DNA of 64,000 nucleotides, from the NCBI GenBank assembly GCA_964019425.1, contig OZ025786.1:1426001-1490000 (forward strand). Reading direction: 5' to 3'. Within the stretch, counting starts at the first letter, position 1, and every line of letters starts with the position of its first letter. Positions 2,971 through 62,618 of this stretch are shown one piece after another. Below the pieces are notes generated by a model that searched no databases, was not told the DNA's origin, and was given only the letters and a program-made list of their open reading frames with translations. The position numbers were made by a program, and so were the translations under genes. Source of the stretch: Flectonema sp. DT1601 (taxonomy: Eukaryota).

Positions 2971-4774
2971 ATGGAACAGGAAGTAGAGGTAAAGACAGAC
3001 AATCAATACTATAAATACATTGTTTGTTTATCAGTAAAAGCTGAGGGTAGGGATGGCAACCCATGGCCTTTGCAATGCACTGAATTCAGATTGGTCGTTG
3101 TAAATGTTTTAAAATGTCGCATCGCAGAAAGACTTGTCGTCAAAGTCAACAAATTCGCAGATGCGATAACCCAAATAGACGATTTCTTAGAGGCTAGGAA
3201 ACTGTTATTTCCTCAAGTAGTGTTCTTGACAAAATCAAGATGGCAACTCGACACCTGCATCAAATGGGAAGCCGCATGTAAAGAAGTCAACCTACAACAT
3301 TCTCATTGGTGTTTTCATCTTGACGCCAGAGTCGAATGTCTCAAAGCCGACCTTGGATCAAAACTGTCGCACACAATAAATAAACTAAGCATCACTGACT
3401 CAAGCCCTGAGGATATATTAGCGAAGATAACGATATCTTTATTGCAAAGAGGACATCATTTCAAAAGTCCACAGTCTGCTAGTAACACGTTACTAAGTAC
3501 AATTCAAAATCAATGGCTTTTCGGAGGAAACGAAACCGACGAAATTGGACAAGCAATTCTAGAAAGAAGCGCAGTCGTACTGACGGGAATCCCTCGAAAA
3601 GGACGTTCTGATGTTACGGCAGCTGCGGCAGCAAAGTTCGCATTGCCTATTGAAGTTTCAGTTGATTATATTATTGTTGATCCAAATCCTGAAGCAGCAA
3701 GTGTTCAAGTGTACTTCGTCCTTCCAGACTCTGAAAGTTGGCAATTACTATTAACTTATTATAATAGAGACTTCGCTGGTAATTCCGATATTGATATTCT
3801 TCCAGTGACAATAAAAGAAGTTGAGGATCATGGATGGAGGCAACCACCTCCAGCGCCTTTAGGACCACCAGCTTCACTGTCATTGTATCCGTCGACGTTA
3901 CCAATTCATTCAATGAGTTATGCTGGTTGTGATTCGTATGACTGTAGTCATTTTGATTATTATGGTTCGAGTATGGGTTCTCAATCACATACTCCCTATC
4001 ATCCTCATGGACCTGTAGATGAACTCTCTAATAATGTTGTTGTATTGCGGTATTTATTTTGTTATTTCTAATTGTGTTTTTTCATATTTAAGACAACAAC
4101 AACAACAACAACAACACCAACAGTGGTCTTCCGTTCGCCACAAATGAAATTGATATTGCGCAGTTTTTAGAAGGGGTTCAGATAGTAAGTCAAGGGATTC
4201 ATCTGATATTCACAGCAGACAATAAAAGCTGTGGAGAGGTATGTAAATTCACTTGATAATCGATACTTATTAAAAAATCACAAATCAACTACATAATAAC
4301 AACAGTGTTTCGTTGAGGTCTGTGGCACTGATGATGTCCAACTCGCTGTTGCGATCTCCGGTAAGAAAATAGGTCATAGATACATTGAAGTCTCAAGAAG
4401 CAGCAAAGGAAAATTAATTAAAATAATGGAACAGGCGATAAAGGTATACATTTAACAAGTATTGTAAGAACGAAAAAAAAAGAATGTTGGGGACAGCACA
4501 CACGTAAAGCTCCTTTAGCTTTGTATCAGTTTTTAAGTCGGTTTCACAGGTTCTCGTGACACAAACAAAAAAAAACATCAACAAGTGGTTTATTTACTAT
4601 TTTCTGTATAATTTTGAGATAAAATCAATTATTTTTTTTAAAACAAAAATAACACAGTTTGGAACCCCGATGGAGGAAGAACCATCTCTCGCAAGTCAGT
4701 TTCAATTGTCTGAAAGCTACATCTTCAGACACAAGTATCACCATTCACCCATAATACACAGTCACATGTACTGA
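2971..4774 (+). CDS. ESRP/hnRNP F/H-like quasi-RRM RNA-binding protein, 4 exons (2971-4049, 4124-4238, 4306-4443, 4658-4774)
   Basis: Splicing GT-AG introns 4050-4123, 4239-4305 and 4444-4657 restores VVVLRGLPFATNEIDIAQFL...GIHLIFTADNKSCGECFVEV...GHRYIEVSRS, a typical qRRM. The N-terminal region loosely resembles the degenerate DnaQ-like domain of ESRP proteins (weak). Confidence 0.8.
4449..4632 (+). repeat. Interspersed repeat family B, copy inside intron 3 of the qRRM gene
   Basis: catttaacaagtattgtaag...gaatgttgg...cacgtaaagctcctttagcttt...tcagtttttaagtcggtt...cgtgacacaaacaaa... is shared with the copies at 5684, 20681 and (reverse) 50811. Confidence 0.9.
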
Positions 4775-5683: not shown

Positions 5684-5787
5684 GCGTTTAACAAGTGTTG
5701 TAAAAAAGAATGTTGGACAGCATCACGCAAACCTCCTTCAGCTTTATCAGTTTTAAGTCGGTTCACGGTTTTCGTGACACAAACAAA
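5684..5787 (+). repeat. Interspersed repeat family B, partial copy
   Basis: gtttaacaagtgttgtaaaaaagaatgttggacagc...gctttatcagttttaagtcggttcacggttttcgtgacacaaacaaa. Confidence 0.85.
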
Positions 5788-7506: not shown

Positions 7507-8124
7507 TGTCATTTTTATGTTTGTTTTTTTTTTTGTTTTTTTTTTGTCCGCGTTCAACGAACTATAAAATTGCTAATATTCATATTGTTCATGTGTTTCC
7601 CTTTTCCATACACAAAATGTGTACGAACAATCCAGACTATGAATCTTGAATCCCCTATACTTCAACCTGTTGTTGATTTCACTTGTGAGTGAATTATTAT
7701 TTGTTTAATAATCATTTGTGATACCTCTACTGTTGTCCTTTGTGTTAAAGTTGCGAATCTAACTTATCAACTGCTCTTACCGTTTTTTTTTTTTTTTTTT
7801 CGTTTTTTTATGTTGTCGGAATGTATTGCATCACCGTACCGAGGGATACATAAAGAACGGTAATTTTAATTTTTTTTTTTTTGCCAATCTTTTATCTCGT
7901 TATGGTATCGCATATCTGGGGAGTTGAATTTAATTTCCCTCCCTCTGAGTTGGTTTGGCAATCAGCGTATTTGAATTAGGTACTTGTGCGCGAAGGTTAC
8001 TATAGTTTTGTTATTGTGCGTGTTATCTATGACCCAACAAGTGGTTGAAAGCCGCGTGGGTTGCATTATTGTTGCTGCTTAGGAAGTGTTCCTACCCTCC
8101 TTTTTCTTCTTACCCCTATCCTTT

Positions 8125-8390
8125 TATTATGAACATGAAACTTAAAGTAACTACATTCCAGTCCTGCAAACTGGAATGACTCAGTCTCAACATTTGACTG
8201 ACTTACTTCTACACCATACTGATGAGAGAGAATAGAGGTAAGAGGTATATGGATTACTCTCGAAACCTATAGTTACTTTAATATGCTAAGTTGCGCATCA
8301 CCCTTAGTCACTGTATTTAAAACTAATGTTAAATTATCTTTATGTTTTATGATACAACACAGTTGTAATTTTTACAAAATCGAACATACA
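8125..8390 (+). mobile_element. Short non-coding retroposon-like element (family A) carrying a hammerhead ribozyme; 14-bp target-site duplication
   Basis: Flanked by the direct repeat TACCCCTATCCTTT at 8111-8124 and 8391-8404. Identical to 62193-62459 except for one T in a homopolymer. No ORF. Confidence 0.85.
8142..8281 (+). ncRNA. Hammerhead ribozyme, non-circularly permuted, within a larger structured RNA
   Basis: CCATA(8214-18)-CTGATGA(8219-25)-GAGAG(8226-30)...AGGT-A-TATGG(8243-52)...CTCTC(8257-61)-GAAA-CCT(8262-68). Closing helix TTAAAGTAACTA/TAGTTACTTTAA. Predicted cleavage after GUA at 8247. Confidence 0.75.
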
Positions 8391-8943
8391 TACCCCTATC
8401 CTTTATCTGGAAAAAAAGAACTTCCAACTAGATGTGGTAATGTTTAGCAATATTTATTATTTATTTATTAATGGAACGGCTACCTTCCTTAATATTATTT
8501 ATTTATATTGGCTAAAGGTCATGTCTAAGTTGTATTCATAACATATGGTTGAACTGACTGTGAAACGAAAGTAGCAACACAGTGACGATCTTGTTGACTG
8601 TGTTCACAGATTTTGGAATGATGTGGTCATCTTTTTATAAAGACCTAATCACCTTTTGAAAGCCATCGCTGTAAAGCTGTGTTGTGTTTGCCTCGTTTCG
8701 AAGTTAGTTGCGCAAGAGGGAAAAAAAAAAAAAAAAAAAAAAAAAAAACCATCCATTATACTACCACGACGTTTCATCGCGTTCGTATTTACCTTGCCCT
8801 CTGTTATTTCGCAGTACCCACTCGCTATTTGTTTTTTTTTATTCCCTTTTTGGTTCCTCCGAAAAAAGCTCGCTATTGTGATTATTACATGTCTGAGAAA
8901 AGTTTGACGTGTCATTTTCTTACTTCTTCTCTTCAGCACTATT

Positions 8944-15000: not shown

Positions 15001-16548
15001 TGATCTCGTGCTCTCTTTTTTCTTTTTTTTTTCTTTTTGGGAAAACCTCTAATTCCACGCACGTGTTACTGAAATGTCCGATCTCAACATAGTAGTTTCC
15101 GAAATGGACAGCTACTATTTTTTTATATAACTTACTGTTAGTGTATTTCGGGGATTTTTTTTTCCTCCCAAAATTTTTTTTCCCACTCAAGGTAAGGCAT
15201 CCGACGAGATGAGTGAAGAAGACCGAACCTGTGTGACCTGGGGCTAGGCCTGACCTCACTGAGCCACCCAGTACTGTCCTTTCGGAGTTTCTGTGAAAGT
15301 AGCCCACGGAACACTTTTCTAAAGATTCAATCAGCCGAACTACTCCGCTACTGACTTTCAGTTGATTAGCGAGCTACTAGTATATATTATTATGTCACCT
15401 GTTGAAAAGGGGAGTACTAAGAGGTAGATTCACGCTGTGCATATTAGTTGTAACTACGGTACCTGCCTTACCTTGAATTATTCCTTTCCTGCTTGAGAAC
15501 CAACCCATCTCAGCCATCCCGTTGCATTTTGGGAACGGAGAAATTCTTTTTCTTCTTCTTATCGAACAGCGAAAAAGAAATCACTTTCAGCGAATGGCGA
15601 AAAGAAAAACCTTTTTCGTTTATTGAACAGCGAAAATGAAATTATTGAACCCTACCATAGATTTTACGCGAAAAAAAAAAAGAAGTTGTTCACTAACAAA
15701 AAGTTCGGAGATTTTCTTTTCCCTTGCTGAATTTTTTTTTTTTTTTTTTTTGCTGTCCATTTCGGAAACTTTTATGTTGAGATCGGACATTTTAATAACA
15801 TTTTTCACGGAAGAGGTTTTCCCTTTTTTTTTTTTTTTTTTTTGAAAATTGTTTTTTTATTTTTATATTTAGGGCTTTTTTTATTCGCTTTTTTTATTTA
15901 TTTATTGGTTGTTTATTCGGTTTCCTTTTGTATATAAATAAAAAGGGGTTTTTTCTGATTTCTGTCTCGTAAACTAATCTTTTGAGGGGATTTCTTTTTT
16001 TCCAACAAAATGTTTTTTTTTGATTTTAACGACGGTTATTATTATTTCCTTCGCGGCATGGATTACGCACTTACTCAAGGCCGGCTTTTGAATAACCGAA
16101 CCTCGGCCGACTGGTGTTATTTTCTTTTTAAACATTTACAATCTTGCCTATATTTTTTTAATTTTAAGTTATAATCGTAAACTGACCTTTATCTTATTTG
16201 ATCCTTTTTGTTTTCATTTTCTTGCTGAGTGCATTCAGAGCTTAGGACTCGTAGTCGCTAGTTTTGCATTTTACTAAGCAAACCAATGAAGGCCTAAGAG
16301 GGACAAGTACTCCAAGATTAAGGCTGCTGAAAGTAACGTATTCCACGGTGTTTTATGGAACAGCAGAAACAATGTGTTTATAACTTTTCTTTTTTTATTT
16401 TTTTATTTTTTTAAAAAAAATATAATTTGATTTGGTGCAATTTTTTTTTTATAATTTGAACTCGACTTGCGTACCGTGTTTTTGGATTGTTGTGTTCTTA
16501 TTATTATTATTGTTTTTGTTTTGTTTTTTAAAAAAAACAAGGGATGAA

Positions 16549-17955: not shown

Positions 17956-18074
17956 CACTGCACTGCAGTAGTGATTTGAGACTGAATTCCCATGCTTGTT
18001 ACTCACAGACATGTTCTGCTTATATAGAGATCGAATAATCTACTTTCCATCATTCCCCCTTCAGTTGGCATATT

Positions 18075-19952
18075 ATGAAATATGTGGGCCTACAGCCGTT
18101 ATCAGTATTTCTGGTTGTATGGATCGGCTGTGTTTATGGTATTGAAGTGAGGTTTACGATGGGAAATCACAACAAGGCTGACTCTCCTGAAGACTTCCAT
18201 GTTGAGGTACTTCACATCTCAGGGAGGAAAGATGTGATTGGTAATTTATCAAAGCCTGACCGTAACGTTCCTATTGATAACACATACACATATCAATACA
18301 GTGAAGATAGTATAGTTAGCATACGTGTGAAACCTATTGAGAACTGGCCAGGTGTGAATGATGTCAGGAGTGACGGTGATGGTGCACAAGTTAAATCAGC
18401 TTCAGTAAAAGTAAATGGAATCTACAGTCAGTATAATGGTGGAGCACAATGGGTTGATTACTATGCGTCAGGTCCCGATAAAGAAGCCGTTTATTATCGT
18501 CCGATAAATGCGACTCTGACACCGACTGCTGTACCGACAGCTGTTCCGACAGCTGTGCCGACAGCCGTTCCGACAGCCGTTCCAACAGCTGTTCCAACTT
18601 TGATGCCAATGAGCACCAGTACTCCAACAACAGGTGAGATAACTACAGGTGTTCCTCACGTTCTTATCTCATCTCGTACTATAACATTGTTGGATAGAAG
18701 TGATGACTTCACTGCTGTGATTACTCGTCTTCCTGATACTGAAGTTCCCTCAACAACCACACCAACTACTCAACCAACTGAGGCACCAACACCCACGCCT
18801 ACATTCAAACCTGTAGTACCGTCATCTGTAGGGAATGCAGCTGCTGCAGGAGCAGTTCTCAGTTCTGGTGGTGCTGTAGCTGGTCACGCTATGAGACTTC
18901 TTTTAATTAGTGGTGACTGTCAGATTGGTGGTGGTGAAGACCGAGTAATTGTGAAGAGTTTTCACTTCACGGGGATCACGATCAACGACTCTCAAGCTCT
19001 TGGAGCGATAGCTGTGAATATTATGATTTTAGTAACGGTAACCGCGTTGCTGAAAATAGTTTCGAACCTTTTATCGAAATGCTTTCCTCGAAGTAAAGGA
19101 ATATACAACGCCAATGACCCTGATGGGTTTCTGAGATTCCCATCAGCTCCGTTAATTGTATTTCAATGGATGTATCAAAGTAATACTTTGTGTGGGTTCC
19201 TTTTATTATTCTACAGCGATACTGTTATTGGTTCTGTTGTTGGATTCTTGTGTGTTTCAGGGTGTGCGATAATTCCTGGGTACTTAGCTGTGATTTTAAA
19301 GAAATCTGTTCCTTGTGAAGGATTCTATGTTGAGGATCCTAATAAGAGAAATATTCTTCAGATGTCATTACTTGGATCAGGTGAATGGGTTAGTAAGTAT
19401 CGAGACAACCATTGGGTTCAGAAATACTCCTCAGTTGTTAGATCTCTTCGGCAGGATTCACTGTCAGCAACTTCGATTGAAATGTATGCTGGTTTCTTTT
19501 TATCACTCGCCTCTTCATTAGAAACAAGAGATAAATATCAGTGCGGATATATTAGAATATGTCAAGGAATTATAATTTTGTCGGTAATGTGTTTTTATGG
19601 TCTAATGAGACCACATTGCAAGGCTCGTGATTGTGTGATGTCATTCGTAATTTGTGGATGTCAGTCAACAGCTCTCGTCTTTTTGGGAATATCGTTCTAT
19701 CAAAACAGTGGCAGTGCTCTTGTTTCTGTTTCTGAGATGTTGCTGGAAATTGTTTCAGTGTTGTTGTTTGTTCAGGTTGCGTTGGATTTGGGTTGTGAAA
19801 TTTACGTTTTTTTTTCACGTCGACGAGAACACATTCAAACAATAGTTTGGAGTTTCATCGATCACAGCGTCGTCCACAACGATAATGAAGTCACCCTTGA
19901 TTACTGTATTAGTCGTCATTCTAAATACCTCTCTTCACAATGCTTTGTATAA
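18075..19952 (+). CDS. Surface membrane protein: signal peptide, beta-rich head, short PTAV mucin-like stalk, multi-pass TM domain (paralog 1)
   Basis: 625 aa. Hydrophobic N-terminus, (PTAV)x6, and about 7-8 hydrophobic segments in the C-terminal half. Confidence 0.85.
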   Translation: MKYVGLQPLSVFLVVWIGCVYGIEVRFTMGNHNKADSPEDFHVEVLHISGRKDVIGNLSKPDRNVPIDNTYTYQYSEDSIVSIRVKPIENWPGVNDVRSDGDGAQVKSASVKVNGIYSQYNGGAQWVDYYASGPDKEAVYYRPINATLTPTAVPTAVPTAVPTAVPTAVPTAVPTLMPMSTSTPTTGEITTGVPHVLISSRTITLLDRSDDFTAVITRLPDTEVPSTTTPTTQPTEAPTPTPTFKPVVPSSVGNAAAAGAVLSSGGAVAGHAMRLLLISGDCQIGGGEDRVIVKSFHFTGITINDSQALGAIAVNIMILVTVTALLKIVSNLLSKCFPRSKGIYNANDPDGFLRFPSAPLIVFQWMYQSNTLCGFLLLFYSDTVIGSVVGFLCVSGCAIIPGYLAVILKKSVPCEGFYVEDPNKRNILQMSLLGSGEWVSKYRDNHWVQKYSSVVRSLRQDSLSATSIEMYAGFFLSLASSLETRDKYQCGYIRICQGIIILSVMCFYGLMRPHCKARDCVMSFVICGCQSTALVFLGISFYQNSGSALVSVSEMLLEIVSVLLFVQVALDLGCEIYVFFSRRREHIQTIVWSFIDHSVVHNDNEVTLDYCISRHSKYLSSQCFV

Positions 19953-20680
19953 GAAAGTTGACTTCCTTCCTTTCTTTTTTTTGATATCTCATTCATGAAA
20001 TTCACTGTTTGTGTTTGGTAAAGAAGTAGAGTTTACTGTGGACGGAGCTCAGTTTTACTGACAGAGAGTGTAGCATACTTTTATACTTTTTATTTCAAGT
20101 TTTTTTTTTTTTTTTTTTTTTGTTGTAATCACTGATGAGTGTTGTTGTAAAAAAGTGGTGATTTTGAACTGTTTATACGGCGTGGGATGTCTACGCTGGC
20201 AGAGCAATTAGTTCTCACCTCCCATTTGTCTTTTTTTTTAAAAAGAAAGAAATCTCGTCGGCTTATTAAAACTGTCACACAAAGACACTAAATTGGCTGA
20301 CAATTATGATTTTAGTCGCATAGCTCCTTAGTACGGGAGCTATACTTCTCACTTTTTATACTTCTCACTTTTTTTTTTTTTTTTAAAATCCTCTTTTTTT
20401 TTTCTATTCCAATCAAAATAACGTTAATCTTTTTATAACGTTACTGATACTCCGAACTCGTTTAGATGAAGTAACTGTTCAACTGTTTCGGATATGTTAT
20501 TGACACCCTTGTTATCAAGTAACCTCCGTAAGGACGTTTCATAATTATGTTTATTTTAAATTTTTTAATTTTTAAAAAAAAATATTTTGTCGCCTCTCTT
20601 TTCGAATTCTAAATTCTTATCACTTCAGATAGGAATATCGGCGTAATTACATGCTGAATGTTGAGTGCTTTTTTTTTTTT

Positions 20681-20860
20681 GCATTTAACAAGTATTGTAA
20701 GAGCGAAAAAGAATGTTGGAGGCAGCACACACGTAAAGCTCCTTTAGCTTTATCAGTTTAAGTCGGTTCACGGGTTTCGTGACACAAACAAAACAAAAAA
20801 CATCAACAAGTGTTATATTTACTATTTTTCTGTATAGTTTTAAGATAAAAACCAATTCTT
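20681..20860 (+). repeat. Interspersed repeat family B, full-length copy between T-tracts
   Basis: (t)n-gcatttaacaagtattgtaag...taagataaaaaccaattc-(t)n. Confidence 0.9.
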
Positions 20861-21280
20861 TTTTTTTCTCTAAATTTGGTTGTCACAAATACGGATTTTT
20901 GTAATCATTTTTTTCCTTTCACAAGAAACCTGTCTTATAGGGAGATGAGTGACTATAAGAAATATCGGGGGGCTTTCTTAAATATGAAATAGTTTCATTT
21001 CCGACGATGTCGGTACAAAGAAAAAAAAAAAAAAGATTTATGTTTTGTTCTGGTTATTTATCGTTTCGACTACACTAACGCAAGTATTCAGTTTTGTTTA
21101 TTTTCTGAGAATCTTGCGGGGGGGTTTCCTCTCTTTTCTATTGGCAACGTAAATGAGTGATTGTTTCTTCTCTGTTGCTGTTTTTTTTATATAGAATACA
21201 TCTACGCGGCGCAAACCCTTTTTTACAATGTCACAAATTAATAATCTACTTTCCATCATTCCCCCTTCAGTTGGCATATT

Positions 21281-23566
21281 ATGAAATATGTGGGCCTACA
21301 GCCGTTATCAGTATTTCTGGTTGTATGGATCGGCTGTGTTTATGGTATTGAAGTGAGGTTTACGATGGGTAATCACAACAAGGCTGACTCTCCTGAAGAC
21401 TTCCATGTTGAGGTACTTCACATCTCAGGGAGGAAAGATGTGATTGGTAATTTATCAAAGCCTGACCGTAACGTTCCTATTGATAACACATACACATATC
21501 AATACAGTGAAGATAGTATAGTTAGCATACGTGTGAAACCTATTGAGAACTGGCCAGGTGTGAATGATGTCAGGAGTGACGGTGATGGTGCACAAGTTAA
21601 ATCAGCTTCAGTAAAAGTAAATGGAATCTACAGTCAGTATAATGGTGGAGAACAATGGGTTGATTACTATTCATCAGGTCCCGATAAAGAAGCCGTTTAT
21701 TATCGTCCGATAAATGCGACTCTGACACCGACAGCCGTTCCGACAGCCGTTCCGACAGCCGTTCCGACAGCCGTTCCGACAGCCGTTCCGACAGCCGTTC
21801 CGACAGCCGTTCCGACAGCCGTTCCGACAGCCGTTCCGACAGCCGTTCCAACAGCCGTTCCTACAGTCGTACCAACAGCCGTTCCTACAGTCGTACCAAC
21901 TGCTATACCCACAACCATACCAACAACTGTGCCGACAGCCGCACCAACAACTGTACCGACAGCCGTTCCGACAGCCTCACCAACAACTGTGCCGGGAGTA
22001 GTTTCAACTTCTGTACCAACGACCACACCAACGACAGCTATTCCAACGGCAGTGCCGAGTGCCGTACCTACAGTCACACCAACGGCAGTGCCGACGGCCA
22101 TGCCGGCAACTGTACCAACGGCAATTCCAACAACTGTGCCGACTGGTATACCGACAAGCATACCAACTATGACACCTACAGCTGCTATTCCTTCAGTTGT
22201 ACCGACAGATGTCCCAACTGACATGCCGACGGAAGTACCAACAACTGTAACGACAATGCCCGCGGGTGGGCCAACTGCTGCATCGACAGATGTCCCAACA
22301 CCGAGTCCTTTATTTAACGCTGTTGAGACAGCAGTTCCTATAATACCTTTACCTGTTGAGTTTAATGACGTAACTGTGACACAGACCATCCCAATGATTC
22401 AAGAAACTCCAGTGCCTACACTAAAAGATAAGGTACCGTCATCTGTAGGGAATGCAGCTGCTGCAGGAGCAGTTCTCAGTTCTGGTGGTGCTGTAGCTGG
22501 TCACGCTATGAGACTTCTTTTAATTAGTGGTGACTGTCAGATTGGTGGTGGTGAAGACCGAGTAATTGTGAAGAGTTTTCACTTCACGGGGATCACGATC
22601 AACGACTCTCAAGCTCTTGGAGCGATAGCTGTGAATATTATGATTTTAGTAACGGTAACCGCGTTGCTGAAAATAGTTTCGAACCTTTTATCGAAATGCT
22701 TTCCTCGAAGTAAAGGAATATACAACGCCAATGACCCTGATGGGTTTCTGAGATTCCCATCAGCTCCGTTAATTGTATTTCAATGGATGTATCAAAGTAA
22801 TACTTTGTGTGGGTTCCTTTTATTATTCTACAGCGATACTGTTATTGGTTCTGTTGTTGGATTCTTATGTGTTTCAGGGTGTGCGATAATTCCTGGGTAC
22901 TTAGCTGTGATTTTAAAGAAATCTGTTCCTTGTGAAGGATTCTATGTTGAGGATCCTAATAAGAGAAATATTCTTCAGATGTCATTACTTGGATCAGGTG
23001 AATGGGTTAGTAAGTATCGAGACAACCATTGGGTTCAGAAATACTCCTCAGTTGTTAGATCTCTTCGGCAAGATTCACTTTGGGAAGTTCAATTTGAAAT
23101 GTATTCAAGTTTCTTTCTATCACTGATTGCTTCATTAGAAACACTCAACACATTTCAGTGTGGTCATATCCGCATTGCTCAAGGATTGATATGCCTGACT
23201 ATGATGTTTATTCATGGAGGACTCCAACCACATTGCAAGGCTCGTGATTGTGTGATGTCATTCGTTATTTGTGGATGTCAGACAGTTGCTTTGTTGTTAC
23301 TCGGGTTGTCCTATTACAGTAATAATTTAGACGGCACTGCTGGTACCGTTTCAGGAATGCTGTTGAAATTTACTTCTGTGATGTTGTTTGTTCAAGTTGC
23401 AGTTGATATTTGTTGTGAAATTTTTATTTTTTTTTCACGTCGGAGAGAACGAATACAAAGCGACACTTGGAACTTACGTGATCAAAATATTATTCACGAA
23501 CGTGTTATCGATGTCGACTGCCTTGAGTACTCTTGTGATTCTCCACAAGTTAGATTTATGCTTTAA
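21281..23566 (+). CDS. Surface membrane protein with long Pro/Thr mucin-like stalk and multi-pass TM domain (paralog 2)
   Basis: 761 aa. The N-terminal ~150 aa and the central TM block are near-identical to 18075-19952, and the stalk is expanded. Confidence 0.85.
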   Translation: MKYVGLQPLSVFLVVWIGCVYGIEVRFTMGNHNKADSPEDFHVEVLHISGRKDVIGNLSKPDRNVPIDNTYTYQYSEDSIVSIRVKPIENWPGVNDVRSDGDGAQVKSASVKVNGIYSQYNGGEQWVDYYSSGPDKEAVYYRPINATLTPTAVPTAVPTAVPTAVPTAVPTAVPTAVPTAVPTAVPTAVPTAVPTVVPTAVPTVVPTAIPTTIPTTVPTAAPTTVPTAVPTASPTTVPGVVSTSVPTTTPTTAIPTAVPSAVPTVTPTAVPTAMPATVPTAIPTTVPTGIPTSIPTMTPTAAIPSVVPTDVPTDMPTEVPTTVTTMPAGGPTAASTDVPTPSPLFNAVETAVPIIPLPVEFNDVTVTQTIPMIQETPVPTLKDKVPSSVGNAAAAGAVLSSGGAVAGHAMRLLLISGDCQIGGGEDRVIVKSFHFTGITINDSQALGAIAVNIMILVTVTALLKIVSNLLSKCFPRSKGIYNANDPDGFLRFPSAPLIVFQWMYQSNTLCGFLLLFYSDTVIGSVVGFLCVSGCAIIPGYLAVILKKSVPCEGFYVEDPNKRNILQMSLLGSGEWVSKYRDNHWVQKYSSVVRSLRQDSLWEVQFEMYSSFFLSLIASLETLNTFQCGHIRIAQGLICLTMMFIHGGLQPHCKARDCVMSFVICGCQTVALLLLGLSYYSNNLDGTAGTVSGMLLKFTSVMLFVQVAVDICCEIFIFFSRRRERIQSDTWNLRDQNIIHERVIDVDCLEYSCDSPQVRFML
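21728..21847 (+). repeat. Coding minisatellite (CCGACAGCCGTT)x10 encoding PTAV
   Basis: Ten perfect 12-bp units followed by degenerate units. Confidence 0.9.
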
Positions 23567-46284: not shown

Positions 46285-46684
46285 GCTGGAACGAATCCTC
46301 GATGGTTCTAATGCACTAGCACAAGGCCGGGTGTAATGAAACCATGCACGATGAGTAGTCTTCAGACCGCTAACCTATGTAATATCGTCTGTTCTCGGTT
46401 TATAAAATGTTGAAAGCATCAAGACGTTGGTTGTCTCTTTTTTTCCGCAGTTCTGATAGAGGCAGTCACCACCAAACCTTTCGGTCAGCAGCAGCTTCTC
46501 TATAGAACTTGTGATGGTTTTCACCATCGTGCCTTCCAGAATACATTGGCATGTGTGTAGCTCAGACGAGTCTGATAACTACTGCCTGGAACGAATCCGT
46601 AAAGAGATTTGTCCTCGATGGTTCTAATGCACTAGCACAAGGCCGGGTGTAATGAAACCATGCACGATGAGTAGTCGTCAGACC
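46285..46684. repeat. Local duplication of a ~70-85 bp GC-richer structured unit (46285-46368 and ~46586-46684)
   Basis: cctcgatggttctaatgcactagcacaaggccgggtgtaatgaaaccatgcacgatgagtagtc[t/g]tcagacc occurs twice. Confidence 0.9.
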
Positions 46685-46822
46685 ACTCCCCTATCGATGA
46701 AAAGATATCTCTAAAAGTATAACAAATGCTAACGGCATTGCATTTGTTTCAGTACTACTGCGTAAGTCAACCGTTTTATGATAATTTATTATTTCTTAGA
46801 AAGGTATCAATTATAAACAACT

Positions 46823-48976: not shown

Positions 48977-51900
48977 ATGGAGGAAGAAGAGGCAGGCAAC
49001 AACTGGTACGACATTTCGCTACCAGTTAAAAAATTCAGCCTGAAACAGCAGATCAGAGGAGCTGGCACACTAGATGACATCAGTAACGTTGTGGAAGAAG
49101 CAAAAAGTTTATATGGTAGGAAATGTATGCAACAAAGAAACAAGGGAGGAAGTGATAAAAAATGGCTTGATCAGATGACTAAGGAAGGTACAGCACACGA
49201 TAGGGTCGCAGCTATAAGTTCCCAATTACGAAAAAGTGTGGAAGTTCCCTACAAACTTCACATGCTAAACGACTTGGTTGGAATGGCGGGTAGAATGGGT
49301 CACACGAGCAGAATAGCTATCGATGCGTTGATAGAGTTGTTCACGACATCCATCATGCCTCCAAACAGAAAGTTGAAAGCAATCACAACCCGATCACCAA
49401 AAGAACTCAGCGATCATCAAAATGAACGTGAAAAAATCCTTTTCTATTGGCATATAGAAGATCAAATCAAATCTATATTCGCAAAATTCTTATCAACCCT
49501 GAGAGACGGTACATCCTCTACTGTTGAAAATGTTAAAGGATACTGCATCAAAGCAATTTATCTTCTCTTAACAAAAATACCTGAAGAAGAAAAGCAATTG
49601 CTCTCGATATTGGCTAATAAGTTGGGTGATGCATCTCCAAAAATGGCAACTCGTGCAGTCCATTATTTATTGTTGTTGGTAAAGGAGAATCCTACGATGA
49701 GGGGAATAGTAGTGCGAGAGTTAGAGCAGTTTAGTTTTCGTAAGAACAATTCTTTGAAAGCACAATACTATTCTGTCAATGTACTTAGTCAGATCATGTT
49801 GTCCAGGGCTGATCATGACCTCCCACAAAAACTGTTGGAAATCTACTTTTCATTATTTTCAAAGGCAGCTGCAGATGCGAATCTCGACAACAGATTAGTC
49901 AACAGTCTGCTCACAGGTATCAGACGTGCATTTCCTTTTAGTAGACATGAAGCAACAAATATGGAGAGATTCTACACTCCTTTATTCTCTATAGCTGCTA
50001 TGTCAGCGTTCCCTCACCGAGTGGCTGCCCTCATGATTGTTCATCAGGTAATCGAAAAAGGTGAAAAACAACTCATACCTCGTTTCTACAATTCCTTATA
50101 TAACCTACTAATGGCATCTCCTGTTAACACTCAAAACATGACTTCGAGTAAGTTGGCATTGTTCTTCTCTCTTGTGTATAAGGCATTGAAAATGGATGAA
50201 GACGTAACTCGTGTGTTGGCTTTTGTTCAGAGAATGTTACAAATTTGCATGCAACACAAACCATCTTATGTATGTGGTGCTCTATTCTTGATAAGTGAAG
50301 TAAGAAAATTATTTCCATCTATTGATCCGCATTTCACTAAAGAAGGTCCTTTTGTTTCACCTGTTGTGCCAGTGAAGCCAATTCCAGTACCCCGACCATC
50401 GGAAGTAGCAGCAGCACCAGACTCGGAGTCTGATGACGACGTTGCCGGATTCGGTACTGTCGCTGGGAAGAAAAAAATTGTTAAAAAAACGAAAACTGTT
50501 AAAATACCACTTCGATCGAACACCGTGTACGTCTCTGGCAATAACGATATTTATGACCCAAACGCAAGAAATCCATGCGCGGCTTTAGCAGAGGTATGTC
50601 ACCTTACAGTGAATTGATGGAAATGTCAACTGTTTTTCTTCTTTAAAAACAACAACAACAACAACAGACTGAATGTATTTGGATTATTGACAGGTTAACA
50701 AAACACTACCATCCATCAGTAGTAACTTTCGCCACCTACGTTAGGGAAGGAGGATCTATTGCCTATGAGGTATGTGTTTATACGATAACGATATAATATT
50801 GTCAAAAAAAAGAATTAGCTTTATCTTGAACTATACAGAAAATAGTAATATAACAACTGTGATTTTTTGTTTGTGTCACGAAACCGTGAACCGACTTAAA
50901 CTGATAAAGCAAAAGGAGGTTTACGTGTGCTGCCCAACATTCTTTTTCGTTAAATGCAAAAAAAAAACAAAAATCAAAAAACAGGGTGATCCTCTTGTAG
51001 ATTTCACTCTTCAAGCTTTTCTTGATGCGTTTTCGTTTAAGAACCCAAAGAAGAAGCACATTGGAACTATTAGAGATGGTTTAGATACCGCTTTGAAAAG
51101 ATCAAGTAATAAAAGACAAACTCTTACTCATGATGCGTCAGCATTCGCTGACCTACCTGCGGCTAAGGTTGATATCCAAGATGCTTTTTACTACAAATAC
51201 TTTGTGGGAAGGAAGAATAAGATTTTGGAATTAGCGAAACAAAACGAGTCTGGACTACTAATTGACGAAGATGAGGGACCTGAAGAAATAGAATATAAGG
51301 AAGACGATAATACTGTTGATGACTTCACTCGTAAATATCTAAAGTATTCATACGATGCTATGGATGATGATGCCAATGTATTAGCGGATATGCGACAGGA
51401 CGCAATGGGAGCAACTGATGAAGGAATAGACGCTGATATGCTCCGCCGTGATATTGAACACGGTCATGACGACATGATGGGCGTTCAAATCTCAAAAGAT
51501 GATATCCCAGATGATGAAAGTGACGATGGCTCCACCGATGACGATGACGATGACGAACCAAATTTCAAAGCAGCAGTAGCTGCTGGACAAGAAGAAGGAG
51601 ATGAGGAGTCTGATGACGATGACGATGACGATGACGGTGATGATGACATTGACATCGACGCGATGGATGCAAACATCTCTGGGCGTTCATTTGCAAAGGC
51701 TGTGCCGACATCAGAATCCGAGGCATCCGACGATGACGAAGATGAAAACGACTCTGAATTCCAACCTGGCGACTCCGACTCTTCCGGCATCGACGACGAC
51801 AGCTCCGTCGACGACGAAGTCGTCCAACGCAAAAAACGTCCAAAGAACGAACCTCTCAAATCGTTCGATATCACACGTGGTTCTGCTTCCTCGATGGGAG

Positions 51901-52818: not shown

Positions 52819-52855
52819 AAACAACGTTTTTGTGTGTGCTCGTCAGCCCCCACCT

Positions 52856-52942
52856 TTAGTCACTGTATCTAAAACTAATGTTAAAATTATCTTTATGTTT
52901 TTATGATACAACACAGTTGTAATTTTTACAAAATTAAACATA
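52856..52942 (+). repeat. 5'-truncated copy of family A element (no ribozyme)
   Basis: ttagtcactgtatctaaaactaatgttaaaattatctttatgtttttatgatacaacacagttgtaatttttacaaaattaaacata matches the 3' third of 8125-8390. A C-run follows. Confidence 0.9.
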
Positions 52943-53004
52943 ACAACCCCCCCCCCCCCCCCCCCCCTTTCATGTCTCACAATAATTACGCAGTTCAGTT
53001 TAAA

Positions 53005-54378
53005 ATGATTGAAACATCTGTCATATTAATACAAAAAGTTTGGAGAGGTTATCGGTCTAGAAAACATAATCGTGATTTAATAAAAACTGTTAAGGGAAGA
53101 TCAAGACACCGACATCGGACATTAAAACTAATTGACATGCTGCTGGAGGACTCTGAAAAGACGTACGACAGTACCGTAGTTTGGAATAATGCGCAAATCA
53201 ATCATTCAAACCACAACGTTGTCATAAAGAAATCAAGAAATAGACAAGCAATCCAACAAAGTACTGCTGCTGAGTGTTCTTATTTAAAGAAATTGAGAAA
53301 TACACGACAACAAAAAGAAAATCAATACATCATCGCAAGTGAGACATACGAGCATTTGACAGGTGTAAATATCATCACAGAGTGGTGTCCTTCAATGCCA
53401 AAGCATCCACATAATGGACCCAGAAGTACACTAGTTCAACGTTACGTTGAGAGCTATTATAAGAAAACTTGTCGAGAACAATCAAATACTAAATTATCAT
53501 TGCCAGGTTTGTTGGATCTTCCAAAAGCAGTTAACTCACTTCGATCATTCAGCAATGCCATCCTCGATAATGAAGAGAGAACATTTGAAATTTTAATTTC
53601 AGATTTACAATCTAAATTCATAAAGTATCTTAGTCAAAAGGGGAATGACCTTCTTCAAGGTGGAAGAAAAGGTCGTGTTGCATTTAAAAGGGAACAACAT
53701 CAGCAAAAGGTCATTGAACGATATTCATTGTTACCTCGCTATAATAAGAGGAAGCAGAAACCATTGCATTTGTCGATGTTTGAGGATCAGTTGTGGAAAA
53801 GAAAACAACAACACAATCGTGATAAACACCCTACCGATTCTGAGTGGGTTCAGAACATGATCAGCAGAGAGTGGAGTTGTAGAGCTGACGTTTGGAGGAG
53901 GGAAGGATTTCAATGGGAATATAATTTAAAATATCACAACAATCAGCTCTCTGGTGAAATCGGTCAAGTCGTTGAATTGGAAACAACTTTGAGAAATGAT
54001 ATCATCAGAGAAGAGATCTTATCATTCGATCTGCTTGAAGATACATTACTTTCTCAAAATACTAAATTCCTTCCTTCCGACAGTGATATCCTTCCTTCTG
54101 GTCACTTCTCAACTGGACTAACTCACAGCTGGTTAGAATTTAACATTTTCGTTTCTTCTAAGGGTTTATTTCCTCATGCTACTGTGTCACCAGAAGTAGC
54201 ACCAGTGGTGGCCTTTTTAGCTTCGGTTGTTGCAGCTTTTGTGTGTCGTCGTTGTAGAACTAATTTCTTAAAACCATCAACGTATCGATCTATCGAACTG
54301 CCGATGACTTCAATTCAATCTAAGAATGTATTGCCTCCGTGTTTGGATATGTTCCTCATTGATGATGATTTGATATAG
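53005..54378 (+). CDS. IQ-motif protein, unknown function
   Basis: ILIQKVWRGYRSRK near the N-terminus. The ORF-track start (52903) lies in the repeat, so the start is placed at ATG 53005 (52972 also possible). Confidence 0.75.
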   Translation: MIETSVILIQKVWRGYRSRKHNRDLIKTVKGRSRHRHRTLKLIDMLLEDSEKTYDSTVVWNNAQINHSNHNVVIKKSRNRQAIQQSTAAECSYLKKLRNTRQQKENQYIIASETYEHLTGVNIITEWCPSMPKHPHNGPRSTLVQRYVESYYKKTCREQSNTKLSLPGLLDLPKAVNSLRSFSNAILDNEERTFEILISDLQSKFIKYLSQKGNDLLQGGRKGRVAFKREQHQQKVIERYSLLPRYNKRKQKPLHLSMFEDQLWKRKQQHNRDKHPTDSEWVQNMISREWSCRADVWRREGFQWEYNLKYHNNQLSGEIGQVVELETTLRNDIIREEILSFDLLEDTLLSQNTKFLPSDSDILPSGHFSTGLTHSWLEFNIFVSSKGLFPHATVSPEVAPVVAFLASVVAAFVCRRCRTNFLKPSTYRSIELPMTSIQSKNVLPPCLDMFLIDDDLI

Positions 54379-54846
54379 ATTCGGGAAAATACTTATGTTG
54401 GTTCTTTATTTGTAATTATGTTGTGTTCTGACATTTCCAGCTTTGGCTTTTTTTCAGTGTCAGCACGATTACTTGAATATAACTTTCTGTTGATGTAAGT
54501 TATTGTGGTGGTTGTGGTATTGTAACTGAGTTGTTGAACGACTGCTCCTGTTTCACTGTTGAGTAAGACTATTGAAAGATCGCCACAATCAAACAGTTGT
54601 TGCTGTCTGATCACTTCTTAAAAAGAGTTACACACGTTTCCTGGTTTCTCACCCGCAAAGAGAAATTTTTACTGTTTCGGATGCTTTTTTCTTTGATGTG
54701 TTTTGGGCATTTTTAAAAAAATATTTATTTTGTAAGAAGGATTTCTTTACAGATTCCTTGTTCTGCTCTTGGGAAAAAAAAAAAAAAAAATTATTTTTTT
54801 TTTTCATAACTTATTTCTTTTCTCTCCATTCAGTTCAACTATTGTA

Positions 54847-57300
54847 ATGATTTCAATAAAATGGTCGAGTAACTTTCTGGTATTCGGATGTATTTTAATA
54901 TCCGCCAGCATCTGTTCGATACTTTCGATAACATCATCAGACGATGCGATTTCAAAGACGGAGACGAATCGAGACTCGTCAGTTGATCAATGTTTTAGTT
55001 TTAGTAGTAAAGTAATAACAAATAGAACTTCTGAATATCTAAACTTATTATCTGGAAGTGTTTTGTCGATGATTGAAAAGCATTTCACGACTCACAAAGC
55101 AGTAACACAACTTATTGTTTCAGAGATGCTTGCTGGTGATGATCAACAAAAAGACAGTTGGGAATTTCTTTGGAACAAACGATCAGCTTTTATGAATTTG
55201 TATAACTCATTTTACGACAGTGGTGTTGCTGGTCTTGGCGTAATAAATAGAAACAGCGCAGTTCTTTATATTGTCGAGGATGTATTTACGGTTTTATCAT
55301 CATCTAGACACACCATACTCACTGTTAATAATGGTTCAGAATATGATGTGCCAGGCATTCCAACCAAACATAGACTTGCTTGGGGAACTGCACAGAATTT
55401 TACCGGAGGATTCGCGAATCCAGAACCACAATTCTATCCAAACTGTAAAGAGTGGAGGGATTATCCGTGGATTGACATGGGACCTTGCTATGGTAAACCT
55501 TCGTCTGTCACATCCGCATATTCAGTTGAAATATTCCAGGGTATTGTATTACCTGGGGTTGACAACGTCGTGTTCGCCCCACCAATTGCTATAGGTCCGT
55601 ATATTGCTATATTCTGCCTTGGTACTTATTACAATTCACGAGGTGAATACACTGGAATTACCTACTCTGCTCTAGACATTCGAATTGTTGATCGTTTTCT
55701 TCAAAGTCTTAATGTCCCTGGTATGGGAAGAATATTCACCGTCGTAAAGGAAGGGAATTGGTTGGGATTTCCTGTTGACTTGCATCTGACAGGAGTGTCA
55801 AAAGGTGCTTCTGGTAGAGGAAATTCAACACACGCTCAAACAGTAGCAGCCATTGATGCCGATGATGATATCATTAGAAACACAGCATTGTACATTGAAT
55901 CTACTTATCCAAACAAGTACAGTAATATTAGTGATAAAGGTGTTTTTGAAATATCTATTCCGGTTGGTGTAGGAGGAGGAAATGAAACTTTCTATGTTCT
56001 GGTTAACACTTTCGACAACAACAGACAAATCCAGTGGTACGTTGTGACCGTCTTGGATAGAGAATACATTCTCGGTGAAGTTGACAAGGTGACTGACGAG
56101 ACGAAGGTCGGTATCTCAGCCTCATCGAAGACCATTTCAGACGATCTGAAAACATCGAGAATGGCGTTGATCTTGACCATTGGAGGGACAGCTATTGTGT
56201 TACTTATTGGGGGATACTTGGCAATCACAACTGTCACAAAACCGATTAATATTTTGAAGAATGAAATGGCCAGCGTTGCTGTCATGAGACTTGAAGACGT
56301 TAATGAGAACAGAGACTTGTCGATGCTTTCTGAAGTTTCTCAAATGCAGCAGTCGTTTATTCAAATGATACAAAACTTACGAGAATACAGAAATTACATG
56401 CCACAGTCTATATTATTATCCTCAACAGACGATGACGAAATAATATTAGTGAAGGAAATGAAACTATCGATCAGGTCTGATGGGTCAGCGTCAAAGATCT
56501 CTTTTGGTTGCGGATCATTGTCGACATCTTCAATAATTTTTCATAGTAAGGATATGGGTGTTCGCTCTCGTAAACTATCAATCGCAATCACAAACGCAAT
56601 TTCATTCTGTACAGAAACTGGTAGTCTACAACACCACAAAGAGTACATCGCTCAGTCACTAAAACAGTGCACTCAACATGGAGGTATACCTGATAGTTTT
56701 AACGGAGATCGTTTTATAATGATGTTCAATGGTCCGAAAACCTGCACTGATCACGCAATCCAAGCCGCAGTCACTTGCAAGTTGATCTCAATAAATGCTC
56801 CTTACACCATTTCTGCATCGGTGTCGTCAGGAACTGCCAAATGTGGTAACATGGGTTGTGATGGTCTCAAGAAGTACAGTGTTATTGGAAGTGTGTACGC
56901 TGTTGCTATGACGTTAGAGAGGATTAACAGAGTTTTGGGTACTAAGTTGTTATGCTGTCCGACTGCAGAGAGAGATGTCAACAGGTCGTTTTATACACGT
57001 CTTGAAGACCAACTTTGGTACCCAAAATATAAAGGAGATAAAGCAATGTGCATCTATTCGATTGTGTCTGAAAAACGTGTTCCGGATGCGGAGTGGATGT
57101 ATCAGTTGCAGGCTACTGAAGAATCGAATCCTGCTAAGATTCATAATGAAATAATGCGATCTTATTGTGCGAAGGAATACGAAGAGGCTCTTTGTATCGC
57201 CGGTAGTGATCCGTCCTTCGAACAATTGAAGGAAAAGATAATCAAAGCTCGAGATGATGGGATTAACTGTATTAATTTCATAGCAACAGACTTTCTTTAA
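54847..57300 (+). CDS. Receptor-type cyclase-like protein: TM, extracellular sensor (Cache-like), TM, HAMP-like, degenerate class III cyclase (paralog 1)
   Basis: Two hydrophobic segments flank ~400 aa. VTKPINILKNEMASVA...LSEVSQMQQSF..M (HAMP-like), PDSFNGDRFIMMFN and GNMGC.GLKKYSVIG. Confidence 0.8.
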   Translation: MISIKWSSNFLVFGCILISASICSILSITSSDDAISKTETNRDSSVDQCFSFSSKVITNRTSEYLNLLSGSVLSMIEKHFTTHKAVTQLIVSEMLAGDDQQKDSWEFLWNKRSAFMNLYNSFYDSGVAGLGVINRNSAVLYIVEDVFTVLSSSRHTILTVNNGSEYDVPGIPTKHRLAWGTAQNFTGGFANPEPQFYPNCKEWRDYPWIDMGPCYGKPSSVTSAYSVEIFQGIVLPGVDNVVFAPPIAIGPYIAIFCLGTYYNSRGEYTGITYSALDIRIVDRFLQSLNVPGMGRIFTVVKEGNWLGFPVDLHLTGVSKGASGRGNSTHAQTVAAIDADDDIIRNTALYIESTYPNKYSNISDKGVFEISIPVGVGGGNETFYVLVNTFDNNRQIQWYVVTVLDREYILGEVDKVTDETKVGISASSKTISDDLKTSRMALILTIGGTAIVLLIGGYLAITTVTKPINILKNEMASVAVMRLEDVNENRDLSMLSEVSQMQQSFIQMIQNLREYRNYMPQSILLSSTDDDEIILVKEMKLSIRSDGSASKISFGCGSLSTSSIIFHSKDMGVRSRKLSIAITNAISFCTETGSLQHHKEYIAQSLKQCTQHGGIPDSFNGDRFIMMFNGPKTCTDHAIQAAVTCKLISINAPYTISASVSSGTAKCGNMGCDGLKKYSVIGSVYAVAMTLERINRVLGTKLLCCPTAERDVNRSFYTRLEDQLWYPKYKGDKAMCIYSIVSEKRVPDAEWMYQLQATEESNPAKIHNEIMRSYCAKEYEEALCIAGSDPSFEQLKEKIIKARDDGINCINFIATDFL

Positions 57301-58891: not shown

Positions 58892-59164
58892 CTTCAGTTT
58901 GGTATGTTGCGTTTTGGTAGGGTTTTTAACCAGTTGCTTAAAGTCAACATTTTGCTCAGAAAATCTTTCTTTTTTTTTTTATTCTTTCATTTTTATTTTT
59001 TTTGATTTGTACGAACCTGATAGTTTATGTGAGTTCATTTACACTTTTCGGAGGTTTTTTTTTGTTTTCATCTAACCACAGCAAAAATCTTGTTTCTTTT
59101 TTTATTTTGATACATAATTCTTCATAACTTTATTCTTTTCTCTCCATTCAGTTCAACTATTGTA

Positions 59165-61630: not shown

Positions 61631-62192
61631 ATAACCTTCGTGAGTCTACGACTCCACTTCTATAAGTAGGGCAAAAATGATGACAATACTGTTTCGGAAA
61701 GAACGCAAACTTCGATCCGATGTATTTTTCTTCATTTTTCTTTTCGCCTGTACAATAAATAAGTTTTTTTTTCTTCTTTTTCCTTTTCTTTTTTGCTTTC
61801 CTACTTAGGAAGTATCTGTTTAGACAATCCGGCCGACAAGACAAATATAAATAGTGGAAGTTGGCAAACTACGAGGACACATGTAGATAACGGTATGGCT
61901 CTTTCAAGGGAATTTCTTTTTTTTCCTGTTTTTTTTCTTCTTATTCTGTTACTGTTTCTGTCCTCTCAATGTGTTTTCAAAAGAAACCGGGGTTATGATG
62001 CTGTGCACCTTTTTTCTTTCCTTTTTATATAATTGCGAGAACGTTTCCAAGCAATTACAGTTTGTTTATAATTAAATCAAAAGCATCTTTCCTTTTACTT
62101 GATATCACAAATCACAAATTACAATTTTTTTTTTTTTAGTCGATTTTCGACTCTCTCCCATCCCCCCTTTTTTTTATTTTTTTATTTTTTTT

Positions 62193-62459
62193 TATTATGA
62201 ACATGAAACTTAAAGTAACTACATTCCAGTCCTGCAAACTGGAATGACTCAGTCTCAACATTTGACTGACTTACTTCTACACCATACTGATGAGAGAGAA
62301 TAGAGGTAAGAGGTATATGGATTACTCTCGAAACCTATAGTTACTTTAATATGCTAAGTTGCGCATCACCCTTAGTCACTGTATTTAAAACTAATGTTAA
62401 ATTATCTTTATGTTTTTATGATACAACACAGTTGTAATTTTTACAAAATCGAACATACA
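62193..62459 (+). mobile_element. Family A hammerhead-bearing element, second full copy
   Basis: Identical to 8125-8390 except one extra T. Flanked by C-run/T-run sequence on both sides. Confidence 0.85.
62210..62349 (+). ncRNA. Permuted hammerhead ribozyme, second copy
   Basis: CTGATGA at 62287, AGGTA^TATGG at 62311-62320 and CTCTCGAAACCT at 62325-62336. Confidence 0.75.
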
Positions 62460-62582
62460 ACCCCCCATTTATCCAAGTCCCCCCCTTTTTTTTTTTTTTT
62501 TTTTTTTTGGCGTTATTCATCGTTATGTTGTTTTATAATACAATGCATTTGTATTTTACGTACAAAACCGAACAGTTAACAC

Positions 62583-62618
<36 letters not shown>

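Follow-up and report, generated by a model that had tools for sequence, protein, structure and literature searches.

What is the RNA encoded between positions 8142 and 8281 of this stretch of DNA, and why is it present in this genome? The window analyzed here is the whole 64,000-nt stretch of contig OZ025786.1 (positions 1,426,001 to 1,490,000, forward strand). The initial annotation recognized in it the parts of a hammerhead ribozyme, perfectly paired and with a GUA triplet, in a non-circular, pseudoknotted order, and added a linker pairing, two hairpins and a 12-bp closing helix. All hammerhead core elements were confirmed base for base, and the additional helices pair as described there.

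8214 to 8218, + strand: 5' strand of stem I, 5 Watson-Crick bp with 8248 to 8252
8219 to 8225, + strand: CUGAUGA core
8226 to 8230, + strand: 5' strand of stem II, 5 Watson-Crick bp with 8257 to 8261, G10.1-C11.1 present
8214 to 8230, + strand: block C (stem I 5' strand, CUGAUGA, stem II 5' strand)
8243 to 8246, + strand: 5' strand of stem III, 4 Watson-Crick bp with 8265 to 8268, A15.1-U16.1 present
8247, + strand: A at position H17, triplet GUA; predicted cut after this base, by analogy with the published hammerhead core
8248 to 8252, + strand: 3' strand of stem I
8243 to 8252, + strand: block S (stem III 5' strand, GUA, stem I 3' strand)
8257 to 8261, + strand: 3' strand of stem II
8262 to 8265, + strand: GAAA core
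8265 to 8268, + strand: 3' strand of stem III
8257 to 8268, + strand: block G (stem II 3' strand, GAAA, stem III 3' strand)
8202 to 8211, + strand: 5' strand of the stem I/II helix, 10 bp with 8233 to 8242, one G-U
8233 to 8242, + strand: 3' strand of the stem I/II helix, pairing with 8202 to 8211
8154 to 8178, + strand: hairpin 1, 9 bp
8181 to 8201, + strand: hairpin 2, 6 bp
8142 to 8153, + strand: 5' strand of the closing helix, 12 bp with 8270 to 8281, spanning the predicted cut site
8270 to 8281, + strand: 3' strand of the closing helix
8125 to 8139, + strand: 5' strand of a possible outer helix with about 8339 to 8354 as partner, AU/GU-rich and weak, from the minimum-energy fold of the whole element

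Within 7900 to 8600, the core elements could not be arranged as a type I, II or III hammerhead, and the best of the three core arrangements present there was one already named in print. Eckert et al. (2023) describe hammerheads as three blocks, C, S and G, and name six orders of them (PMC10085705). The order at 8142 to 8281 is that of their type CSG, and the CUGAnGA, GAAA and NUH elements, G10.1-C11.1 and A15.1-U16.1 of that type are all present. The sequence thus supports assignment of the putative RNA to type CSG, a pseudoknotted non-circular permutation of the hammerhead, as the initial annotation had proposed in other words. The linker pairing corresponds to the stem I/II helix of this type; in the published alignment, a leader helix pairs with the strand between the stem II 5' strand and block S.

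The rarity claimed for such hammerheads also holds. Type CSG is described from five soil-metagenome DNA sequences, two of them unique and with no host given, and the name was found in PMC10085705 only, in a literature search that had most subscription journals outside its scope. Eckert et al. graded the evidence for type CSG as weaker because there were only two similar sequences of unknown origin. Both CSG-1 and CSG-2 were cut at the predicted site during in vitro transcription, at 0.004 and 0.026 per min (PMC10085705). Their descriptor allows a linker of at most 10 nt and demands that stem III contain, not counting the A-U pair, at least 4 pairs. The copies in the window, with a 12-nt linker and 3 such pairs, were found only when both limits were relaxed.

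A search in the permuted order, as proposed in the initial annotation, with undemanding stem limits for CSG (minimum lengths of 4, 3 and 4 bp), matched both full copies of the element in the window (at 8219 and 62287) and nothing else; there were no matches in 300 dinucleotide shuffles of the window, on either strand. Rfam returned no hammerhead match to the region and nothing at gathering scores, with chance-level matches only at E values up to 10, as expected for the CSG block order. This lack of an Rfam match is the only point in favor of a chance match or an assembly artefact, the probability of which we consider negligible given the shuffles, the different flanks of the two full copies and the intact order within single contigs of two public sequencing runs (X1 and X2, see below).

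Searches for relatives, made in collections poor in eukaryotes, yielded none. Among pattern matches, 0 of 32 and 0 of 7 viral and 0 of 6 prokaryotic-genome sequences passed the CSG descriptor, and none of 11 metagenome pattern matches resembled the element by blastn. One metagenome match that weakly passed a looser descriptor (stem I of 3 bp) looks like coding sequence and was rejected. Two scans of viral contigs with a short reverse transcriptase (RT) motif of Naiad elements gave no matches.

Would such an RNA cleave itself? The 140-nt region is unusually stable (z = -5.8; none of 200 shuffles was as stable), and its nearest-neighbor fold favors a weak local hairpin over stems I to III because such folding cannot model pseudoknots. 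We propose that hairpins 1 and 2 would form first, together with the stem I/II helix, and hold block C in a loop of 21 nt; pairing of blocks S and G into this loop, as two short 5-bp pseudoknots, would then complete the standard core, with the 12-bp closing helix clamping both sides of the cut. From what is known of the hammerhead core and of the CSG RNAs assayed so far, cleavage in cis after 8247 is highly probable. Cis action is favored over an obligate dimer because the published CSG RNAs, which share the architecture, cleave during transcription.

Misfolding of the RNA is possible according to the folding model, and the motif might be a hammerhead by design that is mostly inactive as transcribed, trapped by its scaffold, or that is active only in trans or in dimeric form. 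Stem III is limited to 4 bp and directly abuts the stem I/II helix, the core stays unformed in the nested, pseudoknot-free fold, the published CSG RNAs are slow (PMC10085705), and many Penelope ribozymes work poorly or as dimers (PMC4209133). However, linkers of 0 to 2 nt at the junction of stem III and the stem I/II helix also occur in the tested CSG RNAs and in the nematode element Naiad_Parc, the helices that compete with the three core stems are weak, and all core bases are intact in both full copies and in the listed variants. We therefore regard an inactive or dimer-only ribozyme as improbable.

A comparison of the window with itself by blastn showed that the ribozyme lies within a dispersed repeat.

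8122 to 8396, + strand: copy 1, 275 bp, ribozyme-bearing
8111 to 8124, + strand: left target-site duplication of copy 1, 14 bp, exact repeat of 8391 to 8404, overlapping the first 3 T of the element
8391 to 8404, + strand: right target-site duplication of copy 1, 14 bp, overlapping the terminal C-run of the element
62190 to 62464, + strand: copy 2, 99.3% identity over 276 columns, ribozyme identical, core at 62287
62162 to 62175 and 62480 to 62493: duplication of copy 2, 14 bp, low-complexity
52851 to 52950, + strand: copy 3, 5'-truncated, 3' 100 bp only, 91% identity, no ribozyme, C-runs on both sides
62529 to 62574, + strand: 3' piece of a related subfamily, 80% identity over 46 bp, directly behind copy 2, with repeated C-run/T-run flanks

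All three copies are intergenic, lie on the positive strand, lack poly(A), and have an AC-rich end that meets a C-run; C-runs of at least 4 flank each of them on both sides. Copy 2 has a short unique stretch past its C-run and (T7A) repeats at its 5' junction, and copy 3 is flanked by C5 only and not by a longer duplication. The 3' end is common to all three copies and the 5' ends differ. The predicted cut falls 149 nt from the 3' end of the element and 126 nt inside its 5' end. The 14-bp duplication, the common 3' end, the truncation at the 5' end and the missing poly(A) tail indicate that the repeat very probably spread by retrotransposition. In the repeat-family listing of the window, which was dominated by poly(T), copy 2 was not among the top 20 families.

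The interval from 62160 to 62800 appears to be an insertion hot spot, in which copy 2, the related 3' piece with its long repeated C-run/T-run flank and a further weak match to the repeat at 62674 to 62704 (E value of 0.08) follow one another in a row. A contig of a third sequencing run, X3, shows a pairing similar to that of copy 2 and the related 3' piece.

Two other readings of the 5' end at 8122 were considered and set aside. The 24 nt from 8122 form 7 codons, followed by a stop directly where the closing helix begins; by visual inspection, the extensions seen in X1 and X3 stay open for 10 more codons. An open stretch this short was discounted as evidence for the end of a reading frame. 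A minus-strand short interspersed element (SINE) with an A-rich tail at 8122 was ruled out since the 8122 end varies and the 8396 end is fixed, and the X1 and X3 extensions beyond 8122 are not poly(A).

Small shares of the stretch are found in three public sequencing runs, X1, X2 and X3, which we compared as contigs rather than raw reads. The contigs cover the element and not its flanks, except for three pieces of about 40 nt or less with low identity, which may reflect low-coverage DNA in which only repeats assemble. Seven substitutions were listed, some others near contig ends being left unlisted. Three of the seven lie in the loop of hairpin 2, two turn C-G or G-C pairs into G-U, one is outside the fold, and one, in X1, breaks the terminal pair of the closing helix. 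None lies in the core, in stems I to III or in the stem I/II helix. The X2 variant of hairpin 2 combines the three loop changes with one G-C to G-U change. A U is inserted after A9 in two records, a variation that the published CSG search also allows (PMC10085705), and an extra A occurs between stem III and the closing helix in run variants. A loose end of X1, examined by eye, is a relative of hairpin 1 with two compensatory pairs, one broken inner pair and a lost end pair. Covariation in stems I to III was absent among the copies and listed run variants of the diplonemid family because these are nearly identical.

Upstream of 8122, X1 and X3 run on with similar sequence, which shows that longer forms of the repeat exist; the full copies in the window are themselves probably 5'-truncated at the T-run. 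One X2 contig passes from the 3' end through the C-run and 14 more bases to a restart at 8283, that is, a head-to-tail junction. This junction and the related pieces behind copy 2 may point to a partial tandem arrangement; no full unit of two pseudo-long terminal repeats (pLTRs) around an open reading frame was seen. Among the copies and contig starts seen, none starts at 8248, and no circle joints were listed for the X1 to X3 contigs.

In what kind of genome does the repeat reside? By sequence comparison, the host is a diplonemid: the MAK21-like protein of the window is 86% identical to that of Flectonema neradi, the nearest named species, and 54% identical to one labelled Hpha. The window holds 25 frames of at least 200 amino acids, 23 of them on the positive strand, and no RT or endonuclease domain was found in the 23 long positive-strand frames scanned. 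One long frame has a flagellar calcium-binding EF-hand. Genes of the diplonemid D. papillatum lie in same-strand clusters and its mRNAs are trans-spliced, which suggests polycistronic transcription; the mobile elements described for it in the parts of PMC10161547 consulted comprise LINE-1, SLACS, R2/jockey-like and others, with no Penelope-like element among them.

The window contains other repeated sequences. A second dispersed family of about 190 bp, whose copies are 80 to 92% alike and unrelated to the ribozyme element, occurs in both orientations.

4449 to 4639, + strand: copy of the second repeat family
5684 to 5787, + strand: copy of the second repeat family
20671 to 20866, + strand: copy of the second repeat family
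50804 to 50967, - strand: copy of the second repeat family

Inverted repeats of about 74 bp (83% identity) at 15039 to 15112 and 15752 to 15823 surround about 640 bp of non-coding DNA and resemble a small DNA transposon (MITE). At 46296 to 46378 and 46612 to 46694, 316 bp apart, are direct repeats of 83 bp (95% identity) that possibly mark a small element with terminal repeats. There are also two tandemly duplicated gene pairs, 18034 to 19952 with 21240 to 23566 and 54736 to 57300 with 59111 to 61630, the former with Pro-Thr-rich 12-bp repeats.

Copy 1 follows one frame at a distance of about 600 nt and precedes the next by about 550 nt. In the region from 52851 to 53005, the truncated copy 3 ends about 20 to 55 nt upstream of the first ATGs of an IQ-motif frame, likely a region of trans-splicing. 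The intergenic position of all three copies on the gene strand would suit a regulatory RNA adopted by the host, in which the ribozyme is retained so as to cut or destabilize polycistronic transcripts of the host, with mobility as a secondary trait. A precedent is provided in Leishmania by retroposon-derived decay elements (SIDER). The copies, however, are 99% alike with intact duplications and so look recent, their neighboring genes are unrelated, one copy has no ribozyme, and the sequencing runs carry the element without the flanks seen in the window. A primarily regulatory role is thus very unlikely.

Which enzyme, then, would have moved the repeat? The repeat was compared with the Naiad and Chlamys branches of Penelope-like elements. 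Craig et al. (2021) found that Naiad and most Chlamys elements have no canonical hammerheads, that Chlamys insertions are often at (C)n and also at (CA)n, and that non-autonomous Chlamys elements form head-to-tail insertions. In eight Naiads they noted core halves 35 to 50 nt apart, flagged as 'HHR_half_core' (PMC8557442). The corresponding gap at 8142 to 8281 is 36 nt.

We searched the supplement of PMC8557442 for four 8-letter core words, which gave 29 places, and viewed element ends. Such a search misses words split over lines (Naiad Hpol was missed in this way), and it covers only the viewed ends of 54 Naiad families. By visual inspection of consensus 3' ends, six of eight nematode Naiad families (Parc, Nbra-1, Nbra-2, Nbra-3, Hcon and Hpol) fold as complete CSG hammerheads. 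Each has stems I to III together with the stem I/II helix, with stem sequences of its own; the triplet is GUC in five of them and GUU in Hpol. In the published flags, three of the six are marked as half-core, one as core and two not at all. The Naiad folds and the diplonemid repeat have the same four helices and, as read by eye, unrelated sequence, and the architecture common to them and to the published pair may reflect convergence. Inspection by eye did not show the fold in Naiad_Ppac and Naiad_Asuum (final 600 nt of each), in the Darwinula elements Naiad-2 and Naiad-3, whose 3' ends are complete, or among the Chlamys and Hydra core-word matches, the clear ones of which are type I. In our literature search, which left most subscription journals out of scope, we found no report of a permuted ribozyme in Naiad elements, of hammerhead ribozymes in Euglenozoa, or of Penelope-like elements in Euglenozoa or diplonemids.

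In the same supplement, Naiad-2_Dst and Naiad-3_Dst carry a CUGACGA core close to their 3' ends. Some 500 nt upstream of it lies a GUC, after which comes a strand complementary to the sequence that precedes this core. As seen by eye, this is possibly a long-range S-G-C arrangement, in which stem II is not canonical.

The reading that we favor, with a probability of roughly 0.6, is that the window carries a type-CSG hammerhead in the 3' end (pLTR) of a Penelope-like retroelement, or of its non-autonomous partner, in a diplonemid genome; a functional ribozyme with a predicted self-cut after 8247, by analogy with known hammerheads, is part of this reading. Because of the C-run targets, the head-to-tail forms, the CSG fold in six of eight nematode Naiads and the AC-rich start of Penelope-like RT, we think it fairly probable that the repeat was moved by a Penelope-type enzyme.

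A real ribozyme could also sit in a SINE-like repeat moved by a non-LTR retrotransposon of the ingi, L1 or SLACS type, and free that repeat from polycistronic RNA. L1Tc of trypanosomes is freed from polycistronic RNA by a ribozyme at its 5' end. SINEs of the non-LTR type carry a poly(A) or simple-repeat 3' tail. The clean 14-bp duplication and the 5' truncation fit this alternative, and non-LTR elements of this sort are reported in D. papillatum (PMC10161547). Nevertheless, the repeat has neither type of tail, its AC-rich ends meeting a C-run instead; the cut lies in the middle of the element, with no copy or contig seen to begin at 8248; and Naiad and Chlamys are matched in the CSG fold, in head-to-tail joining and in the targeting of C-runs. 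This alternative is therefore unlikely.

For the Penelope-like element that we favor, the following course of events is proposed. Host genes would probably be transcribed as long same-strand units, with the repeat copies on that strand, and cleavage would free the element RNA from read-through transcripts, with cutting of host read-through RNA as a side effect. From a head-to-tail pair, two cuts would yield a unit-length RNA, and since its ends would still be held together by pairing, they could be ligated into a circle. C-runs would be nicked by an RT-endonuclease of the Penelope type, encoded at another locus, and copying would start at the AC-rich end. Since the cut lies inside the element and no copy begins at the cut, copies with a whole ribozyme would derive from uncut or re-joined RNA. 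This fits in vitro results with a Penelope-like RT, which started internally in an AC-rich stem loop and used mainly uncut RNA (PMC11167929). A point against the favored reading is that insertion of the one Penelope-like element tested in vitro did not depend on ribozyme cleavage (PMC11167929). Circularization of cleaved element RNA and its copying more than once have been proposed (PMC4209133), and re-joined RNA as the source agrees with this as well. With the CSG order, each side of the cut would keep one half of the catalytic core, with the GAAA block downstream, and the three core helices and the 12-bp closing helix would bridge the cut and, speculatively, favor re-joining.

A broader version of this proposal is tentative and, in our estimate, somewhat short of an even chance: that CSG is the working pLTR ribozyme of a Penelope-like branch extending from nematodes to Euglenozoa, that the repeat represents the first Penelope-like lineage in diplonemids, and that the CSG order serves re-joining into circles after release from polycistronic transcripts.

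Because the CSG order was already named, the novelty lies in the setting, a dispersed diplonemid retroelement with a link to Naiad, rather than in the permutation itself. Taken as a whole, the element combines a CSG hammerhead and its scaffold in a dispersed, C-run-targeting euglenozoan repeat, and this adds a new form to the hammerhead-bearing Penelope-like and retrozyme elements. It provides an unrelated third CSG family, inside a genome and in a mobile repeat, and the six nematode Naiad ends, as folded by eye, add six more families with fully exchanged stems. If the repeat and Naiad RNAs cleave, CSG becomes a biologically anchored class of ribozymes. Cleavage by the Naiad folds would also answer why nematode Naiads seemed to have no hammerheads: circular orders were taken for granted in the searches, and linkers were limited to 10 nt in the CSG descriptor in print. 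Our favored reading, if true, points to Penelope-like elements in Euglenozoa, and a testable RNA of 140 nt makes the role of Penelope ribozymes (to release, to circularize or merely to ride along) approachable in a polycistronic host.

Among known systems, the closest in fold are CSG-1 and CSG-2, all four helices of which recur at 8142 to 8281 with unrelated stem sequences. The triplet is GUA here and GUC in published CSG, the stem I/II helix has 10 bp rather than 8 bp, and stem III has 4 bp rather than 5 bp; the two hairpins and the closing helix are additions relative to the sequences shown in PMC10085705. The setting also differs, being a dispersed repeat of an identifiable eukaryote lineage here and hostless soil-metagenome DNA there. 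The type-SGC hammerheads of the same paper (HRIMA-1 and variants) are likewise non-circular and also have a stem I/II helix and a pair of pseudoknots in the core, but their block order is different and their 583 sequences come from metatranscriptomes, not genomes.

Traits of Penelope-like elements include a fixed 3' end, 5' truncation, no poly(A) and a hammerhead near the 3' end, and the repeat shows all of these, with a predicted hammerhead. It shares 5' truncation with Naiad and Chlamys, and its C-run flanks and X2 junction resemble the (C)n targets and head-to-tail forms of Chlamys. Penelope-like elements are recognized by a Penelope-type RT with or without a GIY-YIG endonuclease, and the Chlamys clade by an N-terminal GIY-YIG without CCHH, CxC motif and IFD. 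Naiad and Chlamys elements are described, in the parts of PMC8557442 used here, from animals, green algae, spike mosses and slime moulds and not from Euglenozoa, whereas the diplonemid repeat is known here from non-coding copies alone.

Small non-coding repeats with hammerheads are also known as retrozymes and as the pLTRs of Penelope elements, which carry type I motifs (PMC4209133; Li et al. 2026, 10.64898/2026.07.22.740005). For these, RNA release, circularization and dependence on a Penelope-like partner have been proposed, as we propose here. Retrozymes are mostly tandem arrays of animals, in contrast to the dispersed copies in the window, and non-LTR retrozymes are recognized by accumulating circular RNA and by tandem units that each bear a type I hammerhead, an arrangement different from the dispersed CSG copies found here. 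The retrozyme and Penelope type I motifs are circularly permuted and often minimal and dimeric, whereas the diplonemid motif is a complete CSG hammerhead.
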